The notes beneath the pieces were generated by a model. That model saw only the letters and a list, made by a program, of their open reading frames with translations, was not told where the DNA came from and ran no database searches. From Escherichia phage LHE83, in sequence record OQ561750: 64,000 nt of DNA. The stretch is one strand, 5' to 3'. A program made the translations under genes and the position numbers. This document shows, piece after piece, positions 20,179 to 43,828 of this stretch (the stretch's first letter is position 1; every line of letters begins with the position of its first letter).

Positions 20179-20874
20179 ATGCACTATTGTTATATGACCA
20201 CTATAAAATCCGAAAATGATACTTATTACTATTTCGGTAAACACACCGGATTTATAGATGACGGGTATGTCGGTAGTGGCAAATTCGTAGAAGATGCTAA
20301 GGCCTCAGGGAAATGCTCTTTTAATATAGAGGCCTTATGTTATTTTGAGACAAGTGAGCTTGCTTTTGAATTTGAAGAGCTTTTGGTAGAAAATGCCATG
20401 TCCGAAATAACTAACTGCGTCAATATGAAACCTGGTGGTATAGGTGGTTATGCTCCTCCGACACCGGAAAGACTTGAAGAACAGTCTAAAGAAGTTACCG
20501 AACGCTGGCAGGACCCTGAATATAAAGAGCGGGTTTCCAACTCTATTAAAAAGTCTTGGGAAAATGAAGAGCATCGAGAAATGATGCGTCGAATCCATAA
20601 AGAGTATAATGCTAATCCTGAAGTTAGAGAGGCCAAAAGTAAAAAGAACAAAGAATATTACTCTATAGAGAATTATTCCAAGTTTGCTAAAAATCCAACA
20701 TATGTATTATATGATGAGTTCCATGAACTTTGGATTAAGGAAGGACGCCCTAGTTATTCTAAATTCTGGCGCAAATGCTGTGAACTATGTTATCCATATA
20801 CGATAAATAATTTTAGACCACTAGTTGATAGGTTTAAGAGGGCTTATGAATCAGGTGAAGTTAACAAAAAATAA
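20179..20874 (+). CDS. GIY-YIG homing-endonuclease-like protein (Seg/Mob-like)
   Basis: YYYFGKHTG...YVGSGK GIY-(10 to 11 aa)-YIG spacing; basic C-terminal half; 3' end overlaps the gene 55 start. Confidence 0.55.
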
Positions 20875-21403
20875 TTATGTAAATAACAAGGAGCTTCTTA
20901 AAGCTATTACAAGTTGGAAGCAGGAATTATATGCTAACACCGACCCTAATAAAATCATTAGACAAAATGATACTATAGGATTGGCTATTATGCTTATAGC
21001 AGAAGGCCTCAGCAAGCGTTTCAACTTCTCAGGATATACCCAATCTTGGCGGCAGGAAATGATAGCTGATGGAATCGAAGCTTCGATTAAAGGTCTTCAC
21101 AATTTCGACGAAACAAAATACGACAACCCACATGCATATATCACTATGGCTTGTTTTAATGCCTTCGTTCAGCGTATCAAAAAAGAACGTAAAGAAATGG
21201 CAAAGAAATATAGCTACTTCGTCCATAATGTCTATGACAGTAATGATGACGACATGGTAGGTATTGCAGATGAAACCTTTATCCAAGATATCTACGACAA
21301 AATGACTCAGTATGAAACCTCTTTAACTAAAGCACCAGGGTCTGATAAGAGTGCCGAACCTAAAGTTGGTGAACTGGATTTTTTATATGGAACATCAGAT
21401 TAA
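20846..21403 (+). CDS. 55: late-transcription sigma factor gp55
   Basis: Internal ATG gives 185 aa; NYVNNKELL...[28 protein letters not shown] near-identical to T4 gp55 from memory. Confidence 0.9.
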
Positions 21404-21617
21404 TATCACTCCACTTTTAGATGGAATGGAAGACTTCGAAGCACTCCCTTATTTTATTAAATTGATATTACGGGATGTTAAAGGTCTTCCTATTGATATT
21501 GACCCACTTAACGTCAGGAATATTGAATTCACTTCTCCTGACAATAACGTAGATTATCGTTATCATGTTGAGAACGCTAATTTCTACTTCACTATTGAAT
21601 TGACTCCAAAGGATTAA
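21387..21617 (+). CDS. hypothetical protein
   Basis: Internal ATG of track ORF 21351; overlaps the gp55 3' end. Confidence 0.4.
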
Positions 21618-21618
21618 T

Positions 21619-21930
21619 ATGCAAAGCCATGACATTTCTCAATTGACTGATGAGCAAATTGAAGAAGCCCAGCAACGTTTAGAAGAGCACAATATTAAAG
21701 AAGCTAATTCTCAAGCGGCTAAGATTCTTAAGAAAAATGCTCGTGAAATCCGTCGTTTAAATCTCCATGCCCAAGGCGCTGTACTTGAAAACAACTTTGA
21801 AGCATATAAGTACGCTTTAATTAAATTACGTGGTATTTACCGTCAACCTGTTACTGATGAACTTGTTCAATTGATGTGGAAATCTACCCGCAAACAAATT
21901 TGGGAAATCGTCAATGGCCCTAGTAAATAA
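21619..21930 (+). CDS. hypothetical protein
   Basis: ORF track. Confidence 0.5.
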   Translation: MQSHDISQLTDEQIEEAQQRLEEHNIKEANSQAAKILKKNAREIRRLNLHAQGAVLENNFEAYKYALIKLRGIYRQPVTDELVQLMWKSTRKQIWEIVNGPSK

Positions 21931-22114
21931 ACCCTTTAAACGGCTTCTTATTGGAGCCGCCTTTAGACTTCGCTCATACGGTAATATCTGTATTAAGCAG
22001 TCCGAAACCGAATATAAAATGGTCGGCCAGTATTCCGATGGAATTTTTCGGATTGAGCCCGTAGCCAAGGTTTGGGTAGATTCTCATCAACTTAAGAAAT
22101 GGTGGCAACGATGA
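21914..22114 (+). CDS. hypothetical protein
   Basis: ORF track; weak RBS. Confidence 0.35.
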   Translation: MALVNKPFKRLLIGAAFRLRSYGNICIKQSETEYKMVGQYSDGIFRIEPVAKVWVDSHQLKKWWQR

Positions 22115-22172
22115 TAACGTGGACAGGCGGCTAATGAAAGACGAATACGAAAAAGTTTAAGAGGTTGTATGA

Positions 22173-22346
22173 ATGACGAATTCGATGGATTTTGATAAGA
22201 TTAAATCTGACAAAAATGAGATGATACTTCAATTTGAAGCCGCTCGTATTAAAGCAGAAAATGAAGGTACTATTACCTATAAGCCTATCAAGTTCAGGTC
22301 TTCTCACGAACCTCTGTACGGTGTATTGGTTGGTAAAGGAGCTTAG
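22173..22346 (+). CDS. hypothetical small protein (57 aa)
   Basis: Read by eye; AGAGG Shine-Dalgarno; stop codon sits in the terminator hairpin loop. Confidence 0.3.
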   Translation: MTNSMDFDKIKSDKNEMILQFEAARIKAENEGTITYKPIKFRSSHEPLYGVLVGKGA

Positions 22347-22358
22347 GCTCCTTTTTTG
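22336..22358 (+). terminator. rho-independent terminator
   Basis: AGGAGC-TTAG-GCTCCT followed by TTTTTT. Confidence 0.6.
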
Positions 22359-22400
22359 CTTTATATTTGGATGATAAAATGAACCAACTGAGGAGAACAT

Positions 22401-22544
22401 ATGGAACTACTTTTAGGATATGTCGTGTTATTCATGGCATTCTACACATTCACACGAGCTTGTTGGATAGGATTCTTTTCCACTCCTGACGGGTTCATTT
22501 CAATAATTTTATTTTGCATTGCAATAACGGCGCTTGGCTTATGA
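22401..22544 (+). CDS. hypothetical small membrane protein (47 aa)
   Basis: Read by eye; CTGAGGAGAACATATG Shine-Dalgarno; hydrophobic; ATGA overlap with the gene 47 start. Confidence 0.4.
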   Translation: MELLLGYVVLFMAFYTFTRACWIGFFSTPDGFISIILFCIAITALGL

Positions 22545-23563
22545 AAATATTAAACACAGGTGACTGGCACCTTGGAGTGAAGGCCGATGATGTGTGGGTA
22601 CAAAATATCCAACGTCAAGGTATCCAAGACGCTATTAATTATTCTAAAGCAAATGGCATTACTGTATGGATTCAATACGGTGATATCTTTGACGTTCGTA
22701 AAGCAATTACCCATAAGTGTATGGAATTCGCTCGCGAAATCTCCGATTTGCTTAAAGCCAACGGCATTACCATGTATACGGTCGTTGGTAACCATGATAT
22801 GCACTACAAAAACACATTGACTCCGAACGCTGCTTCTGAAGTTCTGGGTAAATACGACCATATCAAGGTTATTGAGAAACCTACTACGGTTAATTTTGAT
22901 GGTACAGAAATTGATTTGATTCCATGGATGTGTGAAGAAAACACGACCGATATCATGGACCATATCAAAAATACTACTGCCGATTTCTGTATTGGCCACT
23001 GGGAATTAAATGGTTTCTATTTCTATAAAGGAATGAAATCACATGGTTTAGAACCTGATTTCCTTAAGAAGTATAAGCAAGTATGGTCTGGTCACTTCCA
23101 CACCATTTCTGATGCAGCAAACGTCAAGTATATTGGTACGCCATGGACCCTGACTGCAGGTGATGAGAACGACCCTCGCGGCTTCTGGATTTTCGATACA
23201 GAAACCCATAAGATGGATTTCATCATCAATGAAACCTGTTGGCACCGTAAGATTCATTATCCAAATGCGACTATCGATTACAAAGATTTTACAAATATCG
23301 CAGTTCGTGTTATAGTCGATAAAATTGATGACGGCCTTACTAAGTTTGAATCAGAGCTTGAAAAGGTCGTCCATTCTTTACGTATTGTGTCTAAGGTAGA
23401 TAACAGTGTTGATATCGATGATTCTGAAGAGGAAGATGAAGTCAAGTCCCTCTTGGATATGATGTATGATTATATCGATGCTCTTCCTGATGGCCACACT
23501 GAAGACGATGTTAAAGCCCTTAAGACTATGGCTGCACAACTTTATAATGAGGTTACACGATGA
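22541..23563 (+). CDS. 47: recombination endonuclease subunit gp47 (Mre11-like)
   Basis: MKILNTGDWHLG phosphoesterase motif; internal ATG chosen; track start 22514 is TTG. Confidence 0.9.
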   Translation: MKILNTGDWHLGVKADDVWVQNIQRQGIQDAINYSKANGITVWIQYGDIFDVRKAITHKCMEFAREISDLLKANGITMYTVVGNHDMHYKNTLTPNAASEVLGKYDHIKVIEKPTTVNFDGTEIDLIPWMCEENTTDIMDHIKNTTADFCIGHWELNGFYFYKGMKSHGLEPDFLKKYKQVWSGHFHTISDAANVKYIGTPWTLTAGDENDPRGFWIFDTETHKMDFIINETCWHRKIHYPNATIDYKDFTNIAVRVIVDKIDDGLTKFESELEKVVHSLRIVSKVDNSVDIDDSEEEDEVKSLLDMMYDYIDALPDGHTEDDVKALKTMAAQLYNEVTR

Positions 23564-23823
23564 CTTTAGATGAATTCAAAAAATCAGGACTTGAACTGGA
23601 GCATGACTGCACAGTTATTGATGACGATAACCAAACGAATATCATTAAGTTCTGGTTTGAAGCCGTGAGCACTCGCGATACCAACGAGCTTATTAAAGTT
23701 TATGTTGCTACTGATTGGGCTGTGGAATTTAGCTTTAATGTAATGGTAGATGATACTCCAGAAACATTAATTCATATGGCTGAATCATGCATCAAGGATG
23801 CTTATAACGATGAAGACTTTTAA
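23560..23823 (+). CDS. hypothetical acidic protein
   Basis: ORF track; ATGA overlap. Confidence 0.5.
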   Translation: MTLDEFKKSGLELEHDCTVIDDDNQTNIIKFWFEAVSTRDTNELIKVYVATDWAVEFSFNVMVDDTPETLIHMAESCIKDAYNDEDF

Positions 23824-25492
23824 GTTAAAGAAAGTAACGTATAAAAATATTATGTCGGTAGGCCAGCAACCTATTACAATCCAACTTGACAAGGTCCAAA
23901 AGACCTTAGTCACCGGTAAAAATGGTGCTGGGAAATCTACGTTCCTTGAAGCCGTTACATTTGCTCTGTTCGGTAAGCCTTTTCGTGATGTTAAGAAAGG
24001 GCAGTTGATTAACTCAAGTAATAAGAAAGACCTTTTGGTCGAACTGTGGATGGAATATGATGGCAAAGAATACTATATCAAGCGCGGGCAAAAACCCAAT
24101 ATTTTTGAAATCTCTTGTGGCGGTGAACGTCTTGATGAATCTGCCAGCAGTAAAGACTTCCAAGCAGAATTTGAACAGCTTATCGGAATGTCATATACCA
24201 GTTTCAAACAGATTGTCGTACTTGGTACAGCAGGGTATACCCCTTTCATGGGTTTGTCGACCCCTGCGCGCCGAAAGCTTGTGGAAGACCTCTTAGAGGT
24301 TTCTGTATTAGCGGATATGGACAAGTTGAACAAATCTTTGATTCGTGAGACTAATAGCCAAATCCAAGTAATCGACGTTAAACAGGATTCTATTATCCAG
24401 CAAATTAAAATTTATAATGACAACGAAGAACGTCAGCGTAAATTATCAGGTGAGAACGCAGCACGTCTACAAACAATGTACGATGAGCTCGTTAAAGAAG
24501 CCAGGACTGCGAAGGGCAATATAGAAAAACTGACTGATGAATTACTCAATGTCATCGTCGATGATGACCCTAGCAACTCTATGAGTGACCTGAGCAATAA
24601 AGGATTTGCAATCAAGAATGATATGGCAACCTTTACTAAGGTCGTGAAATTATACGAAACAGGCGGCAGCTGTCCTACGTGTATGCAAGGATTGGAAGAG
24701 CATGGAAACATCCTTACTAAAATTAAGGATAAGAACTTTGAGCTTCAAAAATCTTTGGATAAGATTAATGAGCAGTACCAAGAACTCAAGCTCATTAAGG
24801 ACCAAGTAACCGAACAACGTAATAAAGCGCTGGCTATTAAATCTCAGATAGCTACTCATAAGCAACAGGCCATTACTGCTGTAGAGAAAGCTAAAAAAGT
24901 TAAAGTATTAATTGACCAAGCAGCTGCTGAGTTCGTAAGTAATGCCGAAGAGATTGCCGCGCTTCAAGCAGAGCTTGATAAAATCGTCTCTACCAAATCG
25001 TCCTTGGTAATGGAAAAATACCATCGTGGAATTCTGACAGAAATGTTGAAGGATACAGGTATTAAAGGTTCCATTATTAAGAAATACATTCCTATCTTTA
25101 ATAAGCAGATAAATTCTTATTTGAAGATTATGGAAGCCGACTACGTCTTTACCCTAGACGAAGAATTCAATGAGACGATTAAATCACGTGGACGTGAAGA
25201 CTTTAGTTATGCTTCATTTTCACAGGGTGAGAAAGCACGTATTGATATCGCACTACTTTTTACATGGCGCGATATTGCTTCTAAGGTATCAGGTGTTAAT
25301 ATCAGCACGTTAATTCTTGATGAGGTATTTGACAGTGCTACTGACGCTGAAGGCGTTAAGACCATTGCAACCATCTTGAATAGCCTTGAGGATACGAACG
25401 TGTTCATTATCTCTCACCGAGACCATGACCCACAAGCTTATGGCCAACATCTTCAAATGAAGAAAGTTGGACGATTCACGGTGATGGAATGA
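23810..25492 (+). CDS. 46: recombination endonuclease subunit gp46 (Rad50/SbcC-like ATPase)
   Basis: Walker A GKNGAGKST, coiled-coil middle, CPTC zinc hook, signature SFSQGEKAR, Walker B LILDEVFD; start at MKTFKLKKV by T4 alignment. Confidence 0.9.
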   Translation: MKTFKLKKVTYKNIMSVGQQPITIQLDKVQKTLVTGKNGAGKSTFLEAVTFALFGKPFRDVKKGQLINSSNKKDLLVELWMEYDGKEYYIKRGQKPNIFEISCGGERLDESASSKDFQAEFEQLIGMSYTSFKQIVVLGTAGYTPFMGLSTPARRKLVEDLLEVSVLADMDKLNKSLIRETNSQIQVIDVKQDSIIQQIKIYNDNEERQRKLSGENAARLQTMYDELVKEARTAKGNIEKLTDELLNVIVDDDPSNSMSDLSNKGFAIKNDMATFTKVVKLYETGGSCPTCMQGLEEHGNILTKIKDKNFELQKSLDKINEQYQELKLIKDQVTEQRNKALAIKSQIATHKQQAITAVEKAKKVKVLIDQAAAEFVSNAEEIAALQAELDKIVSTKSSLVMEKYHRGILTEMLKDTGIKGSIIKKYIPIFNKQINSYLKIMEADYVFTLDEEFNETIKSRGREDFSYASFSQGEKARIDIALLFTWRDIASKVSGVNISTLILDEVFDSATDAEGVKTIATILNSLEDTNVFIISHRDHDPQAYGQHLQMKKVGRFTVME

Positions 25493-25680
25493 GTGATTTT
25501 ATAACAGGCCAGCATTTGTTGGCCGTTCCTGAACTAAAGCGGTATGTTTTAGTTAATAACTTCTCTGGAGACGAACATCTTGTTACTGAAGATTATCTCC
25601 GAAATGCTTTTAAGTCGGAGTATGATAGAATCATGTCGAACAGGAATCCTGCCTGGTTCGTTTATGAATACTTTGATTAA
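25489..25680 (+). CDS. hypothetical protein
   Basis: ORF track; ATGA overlap. Confidence 0.5.
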   Translation: MSDFITGQHLLAVPELKRYVLVNNFSGDEHLVTEDYLRNAFKSEYDRIMSNRNPAWFVYEYFD

Positions 25681-31907: not shown

Positions 31908-32144
31908 ATGGAAGCTTTAATCGTTAGTGCTGGTGTTTTAGGATTCGGTTCTCTGGTTATTATGTTCATCGGTTACTTTTTACCATGGATTCTGGCTCTT
32001 CTGCGAGGCACTCGTAGTAATGTCGGAATTTTCTTCCTTAATCTCCTGTTAGGCTGGACGATGATTGGTTGGGTAGTGGCTTTAATCTGGGCTATCGTCG
32101 CTGAACGTAAATCAAACGCACAAATCATTATTGTTAAGCAATGA
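31908..32144 (+). CDS. imm: superinfection immunity protein Imm-like
   Basis: 78 aa, two transmembrane segments; FFLNLLLGWTMIGWVVALIWA resembles the Imm family signature; syntenic with T4 imm downstream of 43. Confidence 0.65.
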   Translation: MEALIVSAGVLGFGSLVIMFIGYFLPWILALLRGTRSNVGIFFLNLLLGWTMIGWVVALIWAIVAERKSNAQIIIVKQ

Positions 32145-32285: not shown

Positions 32286-32786
32286 ATGAAAAAGTTAATT
32301 ATCGCAATGAGTATGCTCCTATCAGGTTGCGCGGTCCAATATGGTGATACAGTTTCGGCTGATGAAGTTGGTAAAGCTCGTATCGCAGCTGAACAGAAAC
32401 AATTCGATGGCGAAATGAAATTCCGTGCAGGTTCTGGACTTGTGTACACCCGAGCTAATAATCAATGCGGTAATAACTGTGCAAAATATGCTCAACAAGA
32501 AATCGAATTCCAACGTGAACAAGAGTCCAAGCGTGAAGCGGTACTAGCCAAACACCAGGCAGAAATGAAGCGTCAAGATGATTTGTACAAAAAGCAGAAA
32601 CTGTATGCGATGTGCGTAAACCATATCAATCTACAGATTTCCATCCACGAGGCTCGTTATTACGAAATGCTCGAAACCGAGAGCTTCGGTAAAGCTCGTG
32701 ATTATAAGAAACAAATCGATAAGCTCAAGACCAAAGCACCGGCGGCAATAGAACAGTGTATTGAAATCGGTAAAGATAAGATTTAA
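32286..32786 (+). CDS. hypothetical lipoprotein
   Basis: Signal peptide with LSGC lipobox; charged helical remainder. Confidence 0.55.
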   Translation: MKKLIIAMSMLLSGCAVQYGDTVSADEVGKARIAAEQKQFDGEMKFRAGSGLVYTRANNQCGNNCAKYAQQEIEFQREQESKREAVLAKHQAEMKRQDDLYKKQKLYAMCVNHINLQISIHEARYYEMLETESFGKARDYKKQIDKLKTKAPAAIEQCIEIGKDKI

Positions 32787-32846: not shown

Positions 32847-34520
32847 ATGAAAAAGGTTGTTATTTTAGGCGCGGGTCTTGGCTCACGGTTGTATCCAATT
32901 ACCAACGAAATCCCGAAGGTACTGGTTAACTACAAACAACATACTGTATTAAAACATTTGTATGATTTGTATAGTAATCAATCAGATGAAATTATTCTGG
33001 TTATTCACAGCAAATTTAACGACCTCGTTAAAGGCTATATTAAATCCATTAACATGATTAATAGTGATAAGCCTAAATTCACTATTCGTAACGTTGATGT
33101 TGCCAATGGTTCGGCTCATGCTATCGATTGCATTGCCGAAGATATCATTGGGCACAATGTCTTGTTTAACTGGTGTGATATTATTCCTGAAGGTCATAAA
33201 GTTGAGTGGGATAACGACTACTGTTATACCTATGGGACCGACTGTCGTTTTACATTTGAAGAACCGTACTTGCGTGAAATTGGTACCGGTGGTGGCGTAG
33301 TTGGCTTGTATCAGGTGGCTAATTGGACAGGTTTCGACCGTTCTAATTATGGTGAAGACCTTGCTGACAACCTGGATTCAATGGTCCATTTGACTGAACG
33401 TAAGTTAGACTTTGTAGTTGATGTTGGTGACAAACTGAAACTGGCTAAGGCCCATGAAGATTCTGAAATTAACCGTGAATTTAATAAATTAGAGTTCACT
33501 GAGAATCTAGCTATTAAAGTACCTACAAACGAATTAGGTAAAGAAATCCAATCTAAAGAAATCAATTGGTACAATTCTATTGATTCTGAATTCGTTCCTA
33601 GCATTGTAGACTTTGCTCCAGGTGAATTCATTAAAATGGAACGTATCTTTGGTCGAACCATGGCAGATGCCTACCGGTTTATGTCTAAAGAAACTAAAGT
33701 CCTAATGGTTTATAAGGTTATTAGTGCATTACGTTCGTTCGGTGGAACTATCGATAATCCGTCCGATGAGCAATGGTATTCTGATGTTAAGAAAGAAGTA
33801 TTGGACAAGGTCCTTATTCGTAATGCTTCTATTGCCGGATTGATTGAAGGCTTTGCTCCACAGGGTATTACCCATGTTAACGACTTCAAGGTAGGCGACC
33901 CAGAAAAACTTCTTCGTCACGCCTTAGAAATTCTGTCTGAACATAAAGAACCGTACCAACTTATTCATGGCGACCCGCACTACAGTAATATTATGTTGTC
34001 GGACGAAGGTAATATTAAAATCATCGACCCACGTGGTTATTTTGGTAATAGTTCTAAAGGCCCTGCGATTTATGATGAAGCTAAGGTGCTTTATTCTATC
34101 GATGGTTATGACAAATTTAACTCTGACCCTCTATGGGGTGGCTTAACTCGTAACGGAACTCGTGTATTCGTTGATATTGAAAAGGTTATGCCTTTAGATG
34201 ATATTCCGATGTGTACATTTAAGCACAAGCTCTGGATTGCCGTTATTTGGATGGCATTGGCAGGTTACTTTAAAAATAACCCTCTGAAAGCTCTGGGCGC
34301 TTATTACAATGGGCTATATCAACTGAGTGTGCTGCTGAAGCGGCATCCTCGTAAGCGTAAGCTTATCACAGGTGAATTCGTTGATGAAGTTCGCGACCCT
34401 ATCACGGCTCAAATTATCACTCGTTGTCCTGATAAGTGGGTTTTGCTTGACCAGGAAACTGGTGTAAAATATAAACCTACAGGTTCTACCGAACTCCACA
34501 AACAATGGAAGAAAATTTAA
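32847..34520 (+). CDS. bifunctional nucleotidyltransferase / kinase (LicC- or MurU-like N-terminus, APH/choline-kinase-like C-terminus)
   Basis: ATG after GAGGA Shine-Dalgarno; N-terminal KVVILGAGLGSRLYPIT sugar-phosphate nucleotidyltransferase motif; C-terminal IHGDPHYSNIML...IIDPRGY kinase catalytic-loop pattern. Confidence 0.7.
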   Translation: MKKVVILGAGLGSRLYPITNEIPKVLVNYKQHTVLKHLYDLYSNQSDEIILVIHSKFNDLVKGYIKSINMINSDKPKFTIRNVDVANGSAHAIDCIAEDIIGHNVLFNWCDIIPEGHKVEWDNDYCYTYGTDCRFTFEEPYLREIGTGGGVVGLYQVANWTGFDRSNYGEDLADNLDSMVHLTERKLDFVVDVGDKLKLAKAHEDSEINREFNKLEFTENLAIKVPTNELGKEIQSKEINWYNSIDSEFVPSIVDFAPGEFIKMERIFGRTMADAYRFMSKETKVLMVYKVISALRSFGGTIDNPSDEQWYSDVKKEVLDKVLIRNASIAGLIEGFAPQGITHVNDFKVGDPEKLLRHALEILSEHKEPYQLIHGDPHYSNIMLSDEGNIKIIDPRGYFGNSSKGPAIYDEAKVLYSIDGYDKFNSDPLWGGLTRNGTRVFVDIEKVMPLDDIPMCTFKHKLWIAVIWMALAGYFKNNPLKALGAYYNGLYQLSVLLKRHPRKRKLITGEFVDEVRDPITAQIITRCPDKWVLLDQETGVKYKPTGSTELHKQWKKI

Positions 34521-34879
34521 TGCATCTGTGTTTTGATATCGATAATACCATTACTCACTGGCAAGATGACCGTGATTACGAAAACTTTAAACCGGACACC
34601 GAAATGGTGTCCATGATTAATAAGCTTTATGATGAAGGGTACGAGATTACCTTGTTCACTGCCCGTGGTATGACTTCATGCGGCCCGGGTCGAATCTTGG
34701 TTGAAGTAGTTCCTGCATTAGTTAAGAACCTTGAAAAGATTGGATTGAAATATCACAATCTGCTTACACATAAGCCGAGTTATACTTTTATCATCGATGA
34801 CCGAGCAATCCGTCCTGACCACTTTAAAGAAATGGTTCGTGAAGGAACTCTTGAAACCTATAAGGCATATCATCCGTGA
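34520..34879 (+). CDS. HAD-superfamily phosphatase
   Basis: TAATG coupling to the upstream gene; motif I FDIDNTIT (DxDxT) near the N-terminus; LFTARG motif II-like. Confidence 0.6.
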   Translation: MHLCFDIDNTITHWQDDRDYENFKPDTEMVSMINKLYDEGYEITLFTARGMTSCGPGRILVEVVPALVKNLEKIGLKYHNLLTHKPSYTFIIDDRAIRPDHFKEMVREGTLETYKAYHP

Positions 34880-35412
34880 AACCAAAAATCATTGTTATCG
34901 ACGGCCCGGATAATTCCGGGAAGTCTACTTTAATTGAATCACTTTTATCTGATAAGAAATATCGTCTTATTGATTTCCCTAAAAAGATTAATGGCAAATG
35001 CATTTCATTAGGGACCGATAATGACAAGGCTTTAGTCGAGACGTTGTATAAGTTTTTAGACCCTAATTTCGTTTACATCCTTGACCGTGGTTATCCAAGT
35101 AATATTGTTTACTCGGGATTCCTTCGCGGTGAAATGGACCCTTATGTAGAACTGGAAGATTGGAAAAGGTTTAAATCTGAATTCAATATTATTGAGGTTA
35201 TTTTAACCCGTAATCCACTGGATAAAGACTTTGAAGATGACCTTATTAAATTAACCAAAGATGAGTTCAACCTAACTATCCGGCAATATGAAACATGTTT
35301 TGAAAACGTGTTTAAAATCTTAAATCACGACGGCCATAATAACTTGCTTAACGTCGATATGGTAGAATTAAAACGTCTGAATGAATATATTGAAAATAAG
35401 GTGAATAAATGA
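34876..35412 (+). CDS. P-loop kinase (nucleoside/nucleotide-kinase-like)
   Basis: GTG start overlapping the upstream stop; KIIVIDGPDNSGKSTL Walker A resembles dNMP or small-molecule P-loop kinases. Confidence 0.55.
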   Translation: MKPKIIVIDGPDNSGKSTLIESLLSDKKYRLIDFPKKINGKCISLGTDNDKALVETLYKFLDPNFVYILDRGYPSNIVYSGFLRGEMDPYVELEDWKRFKSEFNIIEVILTRNPLDKDFEDDLIKLTKDEFNLTIRQYETCFENVFKILNHDGHNNLLNVDMVELKRLNEYIENKVNK

Positions 35413-36107
35413 AACACATTACCGCTGTTAGTTTTGAAAACGCGTTTAAGCAAATGAACGAAGAAATCCTGGAAGCTCCACAGTTTGCAGTTGATTCTCG
35501 TATCGGCCGTTGTTATGAAATTGGTTCTGCTTCGGTAGAAGTACTGGATGCAAGCACCTATAAATTCACCGACCCTCGTATTAATCGTATCAACTATGAT
35601 TATGCCGAATCTTTCTGGAAGTTTATGATTTCTGGTGGTACTGACGCCGCCGAAGCATTTAAGGAATACCCTAATGTTGCTAAGTTCATTGATAAGCCGA
35701 AAAGTGACGTATTGCCTGCAAACTTCAACACTTTCTATGGACCTAGAATTGTGGCCCAACTCCCAGCCTTACTTAAAGAGCTTAAAGAGAAGCCTAACTC
35801 AAGACGAGTTGTGTTCCAAATTCTCCAAGAACAAGACCAAGCCCTCCTTGATTCTGACGAATCCTTAGAATATCCATGTACTGATTCAGTGACATATTAT
35901 ATTCGTGATGGACGTCTTTATGCACATACCCATATGCGTTCACAGAACTGTGCTATTGTTATGCAGCTGGATTTCTATCTGCAGGGTAAACTGATGGCCT
36001 TTATTGCTGAACAGTGTGGTGTTGGTCTGGGTACGTATTCCCATACTATGGTTAGTGCACACGTATTTGAACGTGATTTTGACTACGTTCGAGGATTCCT
36101 GAAATGA
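35409..36107 (+). CDS. 42: dCMP hydroxymethylase (thymidylate-synthase fold)
   Basis: KPNSRRVVF, YPCTDSVTYYIRDG...HMRSQN and VSAHVFER align with T4 gp42 active-site segments from memory; syntenic position. Confidence 0.75.
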   Translation: MKHITAVSFENAFKQMNEEILEAPQFAVDSRIGRCYEIGSASVEVLDASTYKFTDPRINRINYDYAESFWKFMISGGTDAAEAFKEYPNVAKFIDKPKSDVLPANFNTFYGPRIVAQLPALLKELKEKPNSRRVVFQILQEQDQALLDSDESLEYPCTDSVTYYIRDGRLYAHTHMRSQNCAIVMQLDFYLQGKLMAFIAEQCGVGLGTYSHTMVSAHVFERDFDYVRGFLK

Positions 36108-36997
36108 GTTTGTTTATCGTTCCTATTTTCAGTATGCGTAGTTACGAAACAGGTGAATATGCCGTCCTTAAGGACGGTAATTTTCAACTCCATTTAAACC
36201 GTGCTTGCCCAGGTGATTATCTGGCTTATCCTAGAAATTCGAGCGATATCAAAGAATGCATTGAATTATTTCCTGAACTGAATTTTGTACCTCTTTGGTA
36301 TAAAGAAAATGCTTATGAAACTCGTAAACATTTTTGGTCTGAAAATGAGTTCGTTGTTGATTCGTTAATCGAATACTATGACTGCTCAGGATTGGTAACC
36401 GATATCACAGGTTATGATGGTGCTCATACCGTACAATTCAACTTTAACATTACAATGGACCCTGAAGTTCCTCGTTATTACATCGATGAGTTTATTGATA
36501 CCGACGTGGGTTCAGTTGAACGTTCGATTTATACCACAGTCCTGAATCAATGCCAGAAAGACGTCCTGGTGTCACGAGGTGCGTCCTCTGATAAGATTTT
36601 TGTAGACCAAAAGGTAATTAATCCGGCAGTAATTGAGCGTTACTCTGAAGGCCTAGCGCCTATTAAAATTGATGGTATTTTCCATCCATTCCGTATCTCT
36701 GATAAATGTTATCAATTCGAAAGAGTTGTAGACCAAGCTGCGGCTGAAGGTTCTCGCCTTTATATCACCGATCCGAATGATTCATTTAAGCGTGAAGACT
36801 ATCGTCCTGATGTAGAGATTATTAAATTCAAACCGAGTAAGGTTGAATATTATCAGATTCTGAAATCAAGACCTCATATCATTTATCATGAGAATCCCAG
36901 TTTAGTATTTCATCCTGGTCTAGCTGAATTCATTTATTTCGGTGCCCATATCCATTCTGAGCACGAAATGCCAAGTTATGAGGACGTGGTCCTTTAA
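36104..36997 (+). CDS. hypothetical protein in the beta-glucosyltransferase slot (putative DNA glycosyltransferase)
   Basis: ATGA-coupled to gene 42 and directly upstream of uvsX, where T4 carries beta-gt; no recognisable similarity to T4 beta-gt. Confidence 0.45.
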   Translation: MSLFIVPIFSMRSYETGEYAVLKDGNFQLHLNRACPGDYLAYPRNSSDIKECIELFPELNFVPLWYKENAYETRKHFWSENEFVVDSLIEYYDCSGLVTDITGYDGAHTVQFNFNITMDPEVPRYYIDEFIDTDVGSVERSIYTTVLNQCQKDVLVSRGASSDKIFVDQKVINPAVIERYSEGLAPIKIDGIFHPFRISDKCYQFERVVDQAAAEGSRLYITDPNDSFKREDYRPDVEIIKFKPSKVEYYQILKSRPHIIYHENPSLVFHPGLAEFIYFGAHIHSEHEMPSYEDVVL

Positions 36998-37074: not shown

Positions 37075-38247
37075 ATGTCTGATTTAAAATCCCGTTTGAT
37101 TAAAGCTTCTACTTCTAAAATGACTGCCGACCTGACCAAATCTAAATTGTTTAATGGTCGTGACGAAGTTCCTACTCGTATCCCTATGCTGAATATTGCA
37201 TTAGGCGGTGCGTTGAATGCAGGCTTACAATCAGGTTTGACAATCTTTGCTGCTCCATCTAAACACTTTAAAACGTTGTTTGGACTTACCATGGTTGCGG
37301 CATATATGAAGAAATATCCAGACGCAATTTGTTTGTTCTACGACTCTGAGTTTGGTGCTTCAGAATCTTATTTCCGTTCGATGGGTGTTGATTTAGAACG
37401 TGTGGTTCATACACCAATCCAGTCAGTCGAACAGCTTAAAGTTGATATGACCAACCAATTAGAAGAAATTACTCGTGGCGAAAAGGTTATTATCTTTATC
37501 GACTCCATCGGTAACACTGCTTCTAAGAAAGAAACCGAAGATGCTTTGAACGAGAAAGTTGTAGGTGATATGACTCGTGCTAAATCACTGAAATCTCTGT
37601 TCCGTATCGTAACACCTTATCTGACCATCAAGGATATCCCTTGTGTAGCAATTAACCACACGGCTATGGAAATTGGTGGAATGTACCCTAAAGAGATTAT
37701 GGGTGGTGGTACTGGTATTCTGTACTCTGCTTCTACCGTGTTCTTTATCTCTAAACGTCAGGTTAAAGATGGTACTGAGCTCACTGGTTATGACTTCACA
37801 CTGAAGGCCGAGAAATCTCGTACGGTTAAAGAGAAATCAACGTTCCCGATTACAGTGAACTTCGAAGGTGGTATCGACCCATTCAGTGGATTGCTTGAAA
37901 TGGCTACTGATATTGGCTTTGTCGTGAAACCTAAAGCTGGCTGGTATAATCGTGCATTCCTTGACGAAACCACAGGCGAAATGGTTCAAGAAGAAAAAGC
38001 ATGGCGTGCTAAAGCTACTGATTGTGTTGAGTTCTGGGGACCACTGTTTAAACATGCTCCGTTCCGTGAAGCAATCGAGAATAAGTATAAGCTTGGTGCA
38101 ATTAATTCTATTAAAGAAGTTGACGATGCGGTTAATGACCTTATTAACTCTCGTGTCTCTAAGAACGTTGCTGTTAAATTAGGTGGTAATGCCCAAAGCG
38201 CCGCTGATATCGAAAACGATTTGGAAGAGATGGATTTAGATGACTGA
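37075..38247 (+). CDS. uvsX: RecA-like recombinase UvsX
   Basis: 390 aa; MSDLKSRLIKASTS...; Walker A APSKHFKT region; near-identical to T4 UvsX from memory. Confidence 0.9.
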   Translation: MSDLKSRLIKASTSKMTADLTKSKLFNGRDEVPTRIPMLNIALGGALNAGLQSGLTIFAAPSKHFKTLFGLTMVAAYMKKYPDAICLFYDSEFGASESYFRSMGVDLERVVHTPIQSVEQLKVDMTNQLEEITRGEKVIIFIDSIGNTASKKETEDALNEKVVGDMTRAKSLKSLFRIVTPYLTIKDIPCVAINHTAMEIGGMYPKEIMGGGTGILYSASTVFFISKRQVKDGTELTGYDFTLKAEKSRTVKEKSTFPITVNFEGGIDPFSGLLEMATDIGFVVKPKAGWYNRAFLDETTGEMVQEEKAWRAKATDCVEFWGPLFKHAPFREAIENKYKLGAINSIKEVDDAVNDLINSRVSKNVAVKLGGNAQSAADIENDLEEMDLDD

Positions 38248-41989: not shown

Positions 41990-43018
41990 ATGTCATATGT
42001 CGATAGAGAATTTGCTGTACGTGCCTTGAATTACCAACCTAAATTCAGACAAGTAACTGGTAGTGATTTTAAATTAAACTGTCGTTGTCGTGTATGTGGC
42101 GACTCCCAAAAAGATGAGAACAAAGCTCGTTTTTGGGCCTATCCGGCTAATGACGGCTCCGTAATGCTGCACTGTTTTAACTGTGACTATTCAGCAGGAA
42201 TTAAGAAGTATCTATACGAATATGAGCCTGATTTATATCGCGAATATATTCTTGAGAAACATAAAGAGCAATCGTTCGGGAGACAAGCGGCACCTAAGGT
42301 GGAGATATCAGAAAAGATTAAAGCCAAGATGCCTGTCATCGAAAAGCTTAATTTCTGTGAACGTCTGGATAGAATGCCAAACGACCATCCTATTATCAAA
42401 TATGTAACACTACGTTGCATTCCTGAAAACAAATGGAATCGGCTGTGGTTTACTAAAGAATGGCCTGCATTAGTTAACTCTGTCAATCCAGGGACCTATT
42501 CTAAAGAAATGCCTGAGCCTCGTTTGGTTATTCCTATTTTCAATAAGGATAAACAAATAGAAAGTTTTCAAGGTCGAGCCTTGCGTAAAGATGCTCCACA
42601 AAAATATATTACAATAAAGGCTCATGACCAAGCTACAAAAATATATGGAATGGATACAGTTGACGAACGTCAGTTGGTGTGGGTAATGGAAGGTCCTATT
42701 GATTCATTATTCGTACCGAATGCAATAGCAATTACTGGCGGGTCGTTGGACTTGGCTATGGTTCCATGTAAAGAAACTCGTGCCTGGGTAATGGACAATG
42801 AACCCCGCCATCCCGACACAATTAAGCGTATGCAACGATTAGTTGATGCTGGCGAAAGGGTTCTATTCTGGGACAAGGCTCCATGGCCTTCTAAAGATAT
42901 AAATGATATGATTATGAAAGATAAAGCTGATATAAATGATGTACTGGCATATATGAAAGCTAATATAGCCCAAGGTCTAATGGCTAAAATGAGACTTTCA
43001 AAATATTCTAAAATTTAG
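41990..43018 (+). CDS. 61: DNA primase gp61
   Basis: 342 aa; Zn-ribbon CRCRVCGDS...CFNCDY; TOPRIM; C-terminal QGLMAKMRLSKYSKI as T4 gp61. Confidence 0.9.
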   Translation: MSYVDREFAVRALNYQPKFRQVTGSDFKLNCRCRVCGDSQKDENKARFWAYPANDGSVMLHCFNCDYSAGIKKYLYEYEPDLYREYILEKHKEQSFGRQAAPKVEISEKIKAKMPVIEKLNFCERLDRMPNDHPIIKYVTLRCIPENKWNRLWFTKEWPALVNSVNPGTYSKEMPEPRLVIPIFNKDKQIESFQGRALRKDAPQKYITIKAHDQATKIYGMDTVDERQLVWVMEGPIDSLFVPNAIAITGGSLDLAMVPCKETRAWVMDNEPRHPDTIKRMQRLVDAGERVLFWDKAPWPSKDINDMIMKDKADINDVLAYMKANIAQGLMAKMRLSKYSKI

Positions 43019-43215
43019 GCAGGAACTCCGCTAAAGAATCCAATTATGCTTAATACGTGTTCCATTGTAACCGCTGGTAAAATTATCCCTTGGCTAGCGG
43101 CTACAGGGACTACTAGAAGATTCCAAAGGAATACGTCTAGCGCAAGAAAACCTAACATCATTTTCTTGTCTTTCTTTTCGGCCAATTTCCAGATTTGGTA
43201 AAAAATACTGCCCAT
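43015..43215 (-). CDS. hypothetical small membrane protein (antisense to the early-gene direction)
   Basis: ATG preceded by AGGAGG with a 5-nt spacer on the minus strand; lies in a 288-bp + strand coding gap between 61 and 56; hydrophobic. Confidence 0.4.
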   Translation of the reverse strand: MGSIFYQIWKLAEKKDKKMMLGFLALDVFLWNLLVVPVAASQGIILPAVTMEHVLSIIGFFSGVPA

Positions 43216-43306
43216 GTTATCCTCCTGTTAAATTAATATTTATTCGCTTTAATCTAACAGTTTATAATTATCTAACTTACTAATGAATTGAAAAGGAAAA
43301 AATATA

Positions 43307-43828
43307 ATGGCACACTTTAACGAATGCTCACAACTTATTGCTGGTGTTGATAAAGCTGAGGAAGCTTATTTTAATGCTCTGATTCACGAAGATAAAGACC
43401 CTCTGCAGGTTATGCTTGATATGCAGAAATCATTACAGGTCCGTTTGGCTAAAGATAAACCTGAATATAACCGTCATCCTGATGACTTGGCTACTGCAGG
43501 TGAAGTTGTTGATTGGTTGCGCAATCAGAAAGATTATATTGATGATGAATTCCGCGAACTTCTGACTTCTCTTGGTGGCATGAGCAATGGCGAAAAAGAT
43601 GCGAGCGCTGTATGGAAGCCTTGGAAAGCTCAACATGCTGAACGTCGTGAAACCCTGATTAACGATTTGTCTCCTGAAGACCAGCTCGAAATTAAATTCG
43701 AAATGATTGATATTCTGCACTTTGTTCTGAATATGTTCCAAGGTCTTGGACTGACTGCTGAAGAAATCTTTAAACTGTATTACCTGAAAAATGCCGAGAA
43801 CTTTGCTCGCCAGGACCGAGGTTATTAA
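43307..43828 (+). CDS. 56: dCTPase/dUTPase gp56
   Basis: MAHFNECSQLIAGVDKAEE...DPLQVMLDMQ...EIFKLYYLKNAENFARQDRGY near-identical to T4 gp56 from memory. Confidence 0.9.
   Translation: MAHFNECSQLIAGVDKAEEAYFNALIHEDKDPLQVMLDMQKSLQVRLAKDKPEYNRHPDDLATAGEVVDWLRNQKDYIDDEFRELLTSLGGMSNGEKDASAVWKPWKAQHAERRETLINDLSPEDQLEIKFEMIDILHFVLNMFQGLGLTAEEIFKLYYLKNAENFARQDRGY

Follow-up and report, generated by a model that had tools for sequence, protein, structure and literature searches.

In the 64,000 nucleotides of Escherichia phage LHE83 analysed here (sequence record OQ561750; the whole stretch is called the window), the slot between genes 55 and 47 that holds the alpha-glucosyltransferase gene (a-gt) in phage T4 lacks that gene. 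We consider it likely, with a probability of about 85%, that a-gt is missing because this lineage uses a different DNA decoration, arabinose on 5-hydroxycytosine rather than glucose on hydroxymethylcytosine (hmC). The a-gt cassette of Tequatrovirus and Jiaodavirus phages would then be absent because hmC/glucose chemistry is not used. The phenomenon has already been described for this phage group, the absence of glucosyltransferases in 2010 and the replacement pathway from 2018 to 2026. Petrov et al. 2010 (PMC2993671) reported that RB69 and JS98 have homologues of genes 42 and 56 but no glucosyltransferase genes, and asked about another modification; arabinosylation was found in RB69 by Thomas et al. 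2018. The acceptor base, 5-hydroxycytosine, and the genes involved were defined by Lee et al. 2026 (PMC13326640), together with Mahler et al. and He et al. as cited there. Lee et al. 2026 also name Dhakaviruses among the genera with the syntenic gene cluster.

DNA comparison places the phage in the genus Dhakavirus, as a JS98-type T4-like coliphage. Positions 20800-23600 matched 201 phage records, 77 of which covered at least 80% of that stretch. A close relative, Escherichia phage vB_EcoM_FB (FB; a Dhakavirus), is 99.1% identical over the whole of these positions, and JS98, JS10, QL01, WG01, IME08 and others are 91-97% identical (JS98, 91.6%). The sequence covered for LHE83 amounts to 64 kb, and genome-wide checks were made on the complete 171.6 kb genome of FB, to which blastn aligned the window in collinear blocks of 75-100% identity, most of them 92-98%. 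The window is oriented as the reverse complement of the usual T4 map and runs from the nrd/55.x region through 55, 47, 46, 45, 44, 62, regA, 43, imm, uvsX, 41, 61, 56, dda, 39, rIIA, rIIB, denB and ndd to gene 52, with a G+C content of ~39% along its entire length. An Rfam scan of the whole window gave no match.

A sequence-only reading of the window had described the interval between 55 and 47 as open reading frames (ORFs) of 76, 103, 66, 57 and 47 amino acids plus a terminator, each ORF too small to be alpha-gt. All of these are present at 21387-22544 (Table 1), and tblastn additionally showed none of them to be similar to alpha-gt. That reading was right about sizes and coordinates; the ORFs are not fillers, however, but a-gt.2 to a-gt.5 and 47.1, the genes that flank a-gt in T4. 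In tblastn searches with the T4 proteins they gave E values of 1e-14 to 1e-21, and DUF5491, DUF2654 and DUF5486 scored above the curated Pfam cut-offs. Their order and short overlaps are the same as in T4: the first 17 nt of the a-gt.5 homologue are shared with the 3' end of gene 55, which is also the case in T4 (its 76 residues are counted from an ATG, and the mechanical ORF begins at a GTG at 21351). Judged by these similarities, the five are real genes and not chance reading frames, and the slot differs from that of T4 only in lacking a-gt and mobB, both of which lie between a-gt.2 and 47.1 in T4. In the window, a-gt.2 and 47.1 are 54 bp apart. T4 gp47.1 is annotated as a predicted membrane protein; a literature search found no published function for a-gt.2 to a-gt.5 or 47.1. 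The a-gt.5 gene exists as two strongly diverged alleles within one genus, the window copy being 100% identical to that of QL01 and 38% to that of JS98, while its neighbours a-gt.4, a-gt.3, a-gt.2 and 47.1 are 83-98% identical to the JS98 copies.

Table 1 Features of the window discussed in the text.
Feature	Coordinates	Strand	Evidence
Gene 55 (late sigma factor), 5' flank of the slot	20846..21403	+	tblastn with T4 gp55, 79%, E = 6e-95; start codon per JS98 annotation
a-gt.5 homologue, 76 aa, DUF5491	21387..21617	+	41% to T4 a-gt.5; Pfam DUF5491 E = 1.8e-14
a-gt.4 homologue, 103 aa, DUF2654	21619..21930	+	44% to T4 a-gt.4, E = 4e-21; Pfam DUF2654 E = 4e-23
a-gt.3 homologue, 66 aa	21914..22114	+	46% to T4 a-gt.3, E = 7e-15; 97% to JS98 copy
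a-gt.2 homologue, 57 aa, DUF5486	22173..22346	+	58% to T4 a-gt.2, E = 4e-18; Pfam DUF5486 E = 2.5e-20
Intrinsic-terminator-like hairpin and T-run	22335..22364 (hairpin 22335-22354)	+	terminator scan; fold -13.3 kcal/mol, z = -2.1
MotA-box-like middle promoter (TGCTTTA, 11 nt, TAAAAT), 5' of 47.1 and 47	22357..22380	+	pattern match, intergenic
47.1 homologue, 47 aa, hydrophobic	22401..22544	+	78% to T4 gp47.1, E = 1e-20
Gene 47 (SbcD-like nuclease subunit), 3' flank of the slot	22541..23563	+	71% to T4 gp47, E = 6e-163
Lipoprotein, 166 aa, adjoins imm	32286..32786	+	lipobox signal peptide MKKLIIAMSMLLSGC; no Pfam domain
Bifunctional sugar-1-phosphate nucleotidyltransferase (N-terminal) and sugar kinase (C-terminal), 567 aa	32817..34520	+	Pfam NTP_transferase 2.5e-8, APH 9e-6
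HAD-type sugar phosphatase, 124 aa	34505..34879	+	62% to RB69 gp51; PDB 9iqw E = 2.8e-53; HY126 AfhF counterpart
P-loop thymidylate-kinase-like nucleotide kinase, 178 aa	34876..35412	+	37% to RB69 gp45, E = 4e-31; PHROG 761
Predicted 5-hydroxy-dCMP synthase, thymidylate-synthase family, 232 aa, gene 42 position	35409..36107	+	79% to RB69 gp48; 25% to T4 gp42
GT-B glycosyltransferase, 297 aa, beta-gt slot	36104..36997	+	64-70% to RB69 gp46, gp47
Gap between 61 and 56 (T4 dam position), without Dam	43019..43306	.	ORF list; 288 bp
Gene 56 dCTPase/dUTPase	43307..43828	+	69% to T4 gp56; 92% to RB69 gp28

Glucosyltransferase genes were then sought beyond the slot, using T4 alpha-gt (about 400 aa), T4 beta-gt (351 aa), the T2/T6-type beta-alpha-gt of RB27 (280 aa) and T4 Dam as tblastn queries against the window and the complete FB genome. 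Alpha-gt had no credible match in either, the best being a 36-aa segment (E = 0.019-0.05) within the HAD phosphatase gene. In the window, no beta-gt match was better than E = 2 and no Dam match better than E = 0.8; in FB, neither query had a match at E <= 1. RB27 beta-alpha-gt gave only weak matches, which lay within genes 52 and 43 in the window and FB alike. The check proposed with the sequence-only reading was therefore negative: no glucosyltransferase or Dam homologue turned up, either in the window or in the genome of FB. The reading also noted the lack of a Dam-sized ORF between 61 and 56, and indeed the only ORFs in this gap encode 66 aa on the minus strand and 51 aa on the plus strand. 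It counted the missing Dam as a sign on glucosylation, which we do not follow, as Dam has no bearing on glycosylation. The 66-aa minus-strand ORF (43015-43215) is hydrophobic and shows weak similarity (E = 0.003) to RB69 ORF029w, an ORF of like position and orientation. Across the phage collection, 657 records contain alpha-gt; the examples listed come from Tequatrovirus-like coliphages, from Shigella and Yersinia phages and from Jiaodavirus phages of Klebsiella, and a few cyanophages appear in the counts by organism.

The match to T4 a-gt residues 3-38 (E = 0.019) suggested that the ORFs at 34505-35412 (124 and 178 aa) might be a split glycosyltransferase. This was rejected, as the former is the HAD phosphatase corresponding to RB69 gp51 and the latter the P-loop kinase corresponding to RB69 gp45.

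Because inspection of the LHE83 genome was limited to 64 kb, one could suppose that the missing a-gt is an artefact, arising by deletion in the laboratory, by misassembly or by relocation of the gene within the genome. We regard this as extremely improbable: the best matches listed, JS98-type phages whose hosts belong to several genera, have nothing annotated between 55 and 47 but hypothetical small ORFs or a-gt.2 to a-gt.5; JS98 has an almost identical junction and RB69 a similar one; and the complete FB genome has no glucosyltransferase homologue.

The region between imm (31908-32141) and uvsX (37075-38247) indicates what may take the place of glucosylation. In T4 it holds only imm.1, 42, beta-gt and segA, whereas the window has six ORFs there, and the cluster is conserved at 91-99.5% in 51 phage records, of which most are from coliphages and a few from Salmonella or Shigella isolates. 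The 567-aa bifunctional protein is the counterpart of RB69 gp52:53 and HY126 AfhE, with 41-44% identity to RB69 gp52 and gp53. The 297-aa protein is encoded between the gene 42 homologue and uvsX and corresponds to RB69 gp46:47, the proposed first arabinosyltransferase; beta-gt has thus been replaced, as had been proposed from the sequence alone, and the replacement is a different GT-B glycosyltransferase. Outside the cluster, the gene 56 dCTPase/dUTPase is present, as is denB (71% identical to that of T4), so that the phage appears equipped to exclude unmodified cytosine, given the established roles of the T4 homologues.

The 232-aa protein at the gene 42 position belongs to the thymidylate synthase family (Pfam Thymidylat_synt, E = 4.8e-14), with its catalytic cysteine, C146, in an invariant column. 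It matches PDB entries 9iqu and 9iqc with E = 1.5e-125; these correspond to the HY126 enzyme of which Lee et al. mention a crystal structure (PMC13326640). The RB69 counterpart, gp48, has been shown experimentally to convert dCMP to 5-hydroxy-dCMP, and D169N, alongside N177D and L143E, is a predictive signature of 5-hydroxy-dCMP synthases (Lee et al. 2026, PMC13326640). All three substitutions (E. coli ThyA numbering, the ThyA reference in the alignment having been entered by hand) are found in the 232-aa protein. Its motifs, HMRSQNCAIVMQLDF and SLEYPCT, compare with HMRSQNCAVVMQLDF and TLEYPCT in RB69 gp48, the three signature residues being equal. T4 gp42 keeps D169, and the phage's own td keeps D169, N177 and L143. 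The enzyme is therefore predicted to be a 5-hydroxy-dCMP synthase and not a dCMP hydroxymethylase, and hmC is very probably not the modified base of this phage. The sequence-only suggestion that T4-style glucosylation of hmC does not take place is supported and can be made more precise, the acceptor base itself probably being a different one.

A T4-like phage could also leave its hmC unglycosylated and rely on anti-restriction proteins for protection, an option raised for JS98 and RB69 by Petrov et al. 2010 (PMC2993671). The thymidylate synthase homologue does carry the dCMP-specifying N177D, gp56 and denB are present, and T4-type glucosyltransferase genes were found in neither the window nor FB, all of which would fit. 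The enzyme, however, is 79% identical to a verified 5-hydroxy-dCMP synthase and has D169N where T4 gp42 keeps D169; a conserved GT-B transferase and a nucleoside diphosphate (NDP)-sugar pathway adjoin its gene; and no homologue was detected in FB for arn, whose product inhibits McrBC, an enzyme that cleaves hmC DNA lacking glucose, although motA, asiA, denB and ndd are present there. Unglycosylated hmC is thus very unlikely.

From the gene content, homologies, signature residues and fold described above, we infer what the enzymes do, which sugar is used and in what number, and hence the DNA chemistry of phage LHE83, as follows. The thymidylate synthase homologue would convert dCMP to 5-hydroxy-dCMP, and gp56 would clear dCTP, leaving only the modified dCTP for incorporation. 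The kinase/nucleotidyltransferase and the HAD phosphatase would turn arabinose 5-phosphate into UDP-arabinofuranose, and the single GT-B transferase in the beta-gt slot would attach arabinose to cytosine at its 5-hydroxyl. The arabinose 5-phosphate probably comes from the host enzymes KdsD/GutQ, through which E. coli produces it for Kdo synthesis. In HY126, AfhE and AfhF produce UDP-arabinose from arabinose 5-phosphate (PMC13326640). As AfhE starts from a compound that E. coli itself makes, a phage isomerase is probably dispensable. With one transferase and no gp3 found, a single arabinose per base is predicted, at most one sugar.

Several observations weigh against arabinosylated 5-hydroxycytosine in this phage. 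Three RB69 proteins had no match in the window or FB: the arabinose-5-phosphate isomerase gp55, the U32-like gp50, and gp3, the second transferase, of the type associated with di- or tri-arabinose. The AfhE-like enzyme shares only 41-44% identity with RB69 gp52:53, and a different sugar is therefore conceivable. When assayed singly in vitro, transferases were reported to be inactive on 5-hydroxycytosine DNA (PMC13326640), which leaves the step assigned to the gp46:47 family a proposal. The whole-genome glucosyltransferase search was made on FB, LHE83 itself being covered over 64 kb. Finally, no chemical analysis of Dhakavirus DNA was found in the searchable literature, which did not extend to Mahler et al. 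2025 or He et al.

Some of these points are shared by another explanation, that 5-hydroxycytosine is glycosylated but carries, in place of the RB69-type arabinose, some different sugar or chain, such as another pentose or a hexose. The divergent AfhE-like enzyme and the missing homologues of the isomerase, gp50 and gp3 are consistent with it, and Lee et al. describe 5-hydroxycytosine as a platform for different sugars, for example in phage RL38J1 (PMC13326640). On the other hand, identity to the RB69 proteins reaches 64-70% for the transferase and 62% for the phosphatase, Thanatos provides a known case of mono-arabinosylation by a phage whose syntenic transferase is the only one (PMC13326640), and the host enzymes KdsD/GutQ can supply the arabinose 5-phosphate. 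We therefore judge a different sugar unlikely and prefer arabinose. A further and rather unlikely proposal is that Dhakavirus represents a minimal arabinosylation system, with one transferase and neither isomerase nor gp50, making mono-arabinosyl-5-hydroxycytosine wholly from host arabinose 5-phosphate, or carrying a sugar different from that of RB69. Dhakavirus DNA chemistry, predicted from synteny, might then differ from every characterised case.

The 166-aa ORF next to imm stands where RB69 has its arabinose-5-phosphate isomerase and T4 the lipoprotein-like imm.1. It was considered as a replacement sugar isomerase and rejected, having a lipoprotein signal peptide and no Pfam domain. Only 11 homologues were found in a large protein database, none of them annotated.

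A terminator-like element lies directly after a-gt.2 (Table 1). Its hairpin, with which the stop codon of a-gt.2 overlaps, has the form AAAGGAGC-TTAG-GCTCCTTT and is followed by TTTGCTTT. Downstream come TTTGCTTTA, 11 nt, TAAAAT, a Shine-Dalgarno sequence and the start codon of 47.1. This hairpin, with a TTGCTTTA...TAAAAT module right after a-gt.2, is also present in T4, RB69 and JS98. T4 has mobB and a-gt next, and beyond them a second, similar hairpin/GCTTTATA...TATAAT module before 47.1, so that the T4 cassette is bracketed by two related terminator/promoter modules where the window has one. Recombination between the repeated modules is a plausible route for gain and loss of the cassette. 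It resembles the promoter/stem-loop cassettes reportedly described in T4-type phages by Arbiol et al. 2010.

The consensus of MotA-box middle promoters in T4 transcription is TGCTTYA-N11-13-TANNNT. The window contains 8 matches to it, where 1.7 would be expected; several lie immediately 5' of genes, and six of the eight are on the plus strand, the coding strand of the identified genes (20122, 22357, 25687 and 53374 are examples). The enrichment suggests that T4-style middle promoters are conserved in the genus Dhakavirus. At 22357-22380 the MotA box, its spacing, the TAnnnT -10 element and the intergenic position are all present, and the FB genome encodes homologues of motA and asiA. We interpret 22335-22380 as a putative terminator plus middle promoter that would drive 47.1 and 47.

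Insertions seem to have occurred repeatedly at the a-gt position. In Klebsiella phage Mineola (Jiaodavirus), an a-gt gene whose product is 66% identical to that of T4 sits between a-gt.2 and the terminator, where the window has its hairpin. In Dhakavirus QL01, a 205-aa HNH endonuclease gene replaces 47.1 between a-gt.2 and 47 (1721-2338 of the QL01 sequence compared; window ~22360-22545); the spans of their matches indicate that IME08 and IME540 probably carry it too. Kinship of the QL01 endonuclease with mobB was considered and rejected, the similarity not being significant (E = 0.34).

A 231-aa ORF at 20179-20874 (plus strand), directly 5' of gene 55 and overlapping its start, is similar to two GIY-YIG homing endonucleases of T4, SegF (E = 2e-13) and SegA (E = 3e-8). 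This ORF is present in FB and absent from JS98, and probably also from most other Dhakavirus genomes, whose DNA matches start at ~20865. Conversely, FB has a reverse-strand 238-aa ORF between 46 and 45.2 (33208-34144), 48% identical to the N-terminus of T4 MobB, which is not in the window; this gap measures ~160 bp in the window (25332-25496) vs ~940 bp in FB. By this comparison, homing endonuclease gene content differs between near-identical phages.

DNA modification in T4-like phages sets which restriction, CRISPR and glycosylase defences are evaded and which type IV systems are effective, and it also decides how phage DNA can be cut, sequenced and engineered with standard enzymes. Placing a JS98-type phage, by sequence, in the arabinosyl-5-hydroxycytosine group and not the glucosyl-hmC group would help both annotation and the choice of therapeutic phages. 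In many records the synthase still goes by 'dCMP hydroxymethylase' or 'thymidylate synthase', and the phosphatase by 'phosphoheptose isomerase'. Across Dhakavirus records the labels of the cluster genes are inconsistent and in part misleading, and further include 'capsule biosynthesis protein', 'RNA polymerase binding protein' and 'capsid and scaffold protein'.

The closest parallels to the window are other Dhakavirus genomes. JS98, FB, QL01, WG01 and IME08 share the order 55, a-gt.5, a-gt.4, a-gt.3, a-gt.2, 47.1, 47, and JS98 is annotated in this way; they also share the imm-uvsX modification cluster, with DNA 91-99% identical to the window. JS98 differs in having the diverged a-gt.5 allele and no seg-like ORF 5' of 55, and QL01 in the HNH gene that takes the place of 47.1.

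RB69 (Mosigvirus) likewise has an empty alpha-gt slot with a-gt.2 to a-gt.5 retained, and RB69 and HY126 share with the window the 5-hydroxy-dCMP synthase, the gp46:47-type transferase, the HAD phosphatase, the kinase/nucleotidyltransferase, the TMP-kinase-like protein and gp56. RB69 differs in possessing the isomerase, gp50 and gp3; at the gp3 position (39 to rIIA.1), the window has only a 107-aa ORF. Moreover, the kinase gene of the window lies between phosphatase and synthase, whereas that of RB69 adjoins uvsX, and the window has 47.1, which is not annotated in RB69.

The T4 locus (47, 47.1, a-gt, mobB, a-gt.2 to a-gt.5, 55) agrees with the window in the flanking genes, in their order and in the hairpin/MotA-box module after a-gt.2. 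In contrast to the single module and 54-bp gap of the window, T4 has mobB and a-gt, two modules, and hmC with glucose. For the one-sugar product predicted here, the closest model is Shewanella phage Thanatos, which has a single syntenic ara-glycosyltransferase and mono-arabinosylated cytosine (PMC13326640). Thanatos infects a different host and is a distant relative, and the parallel is drawn from its published description.

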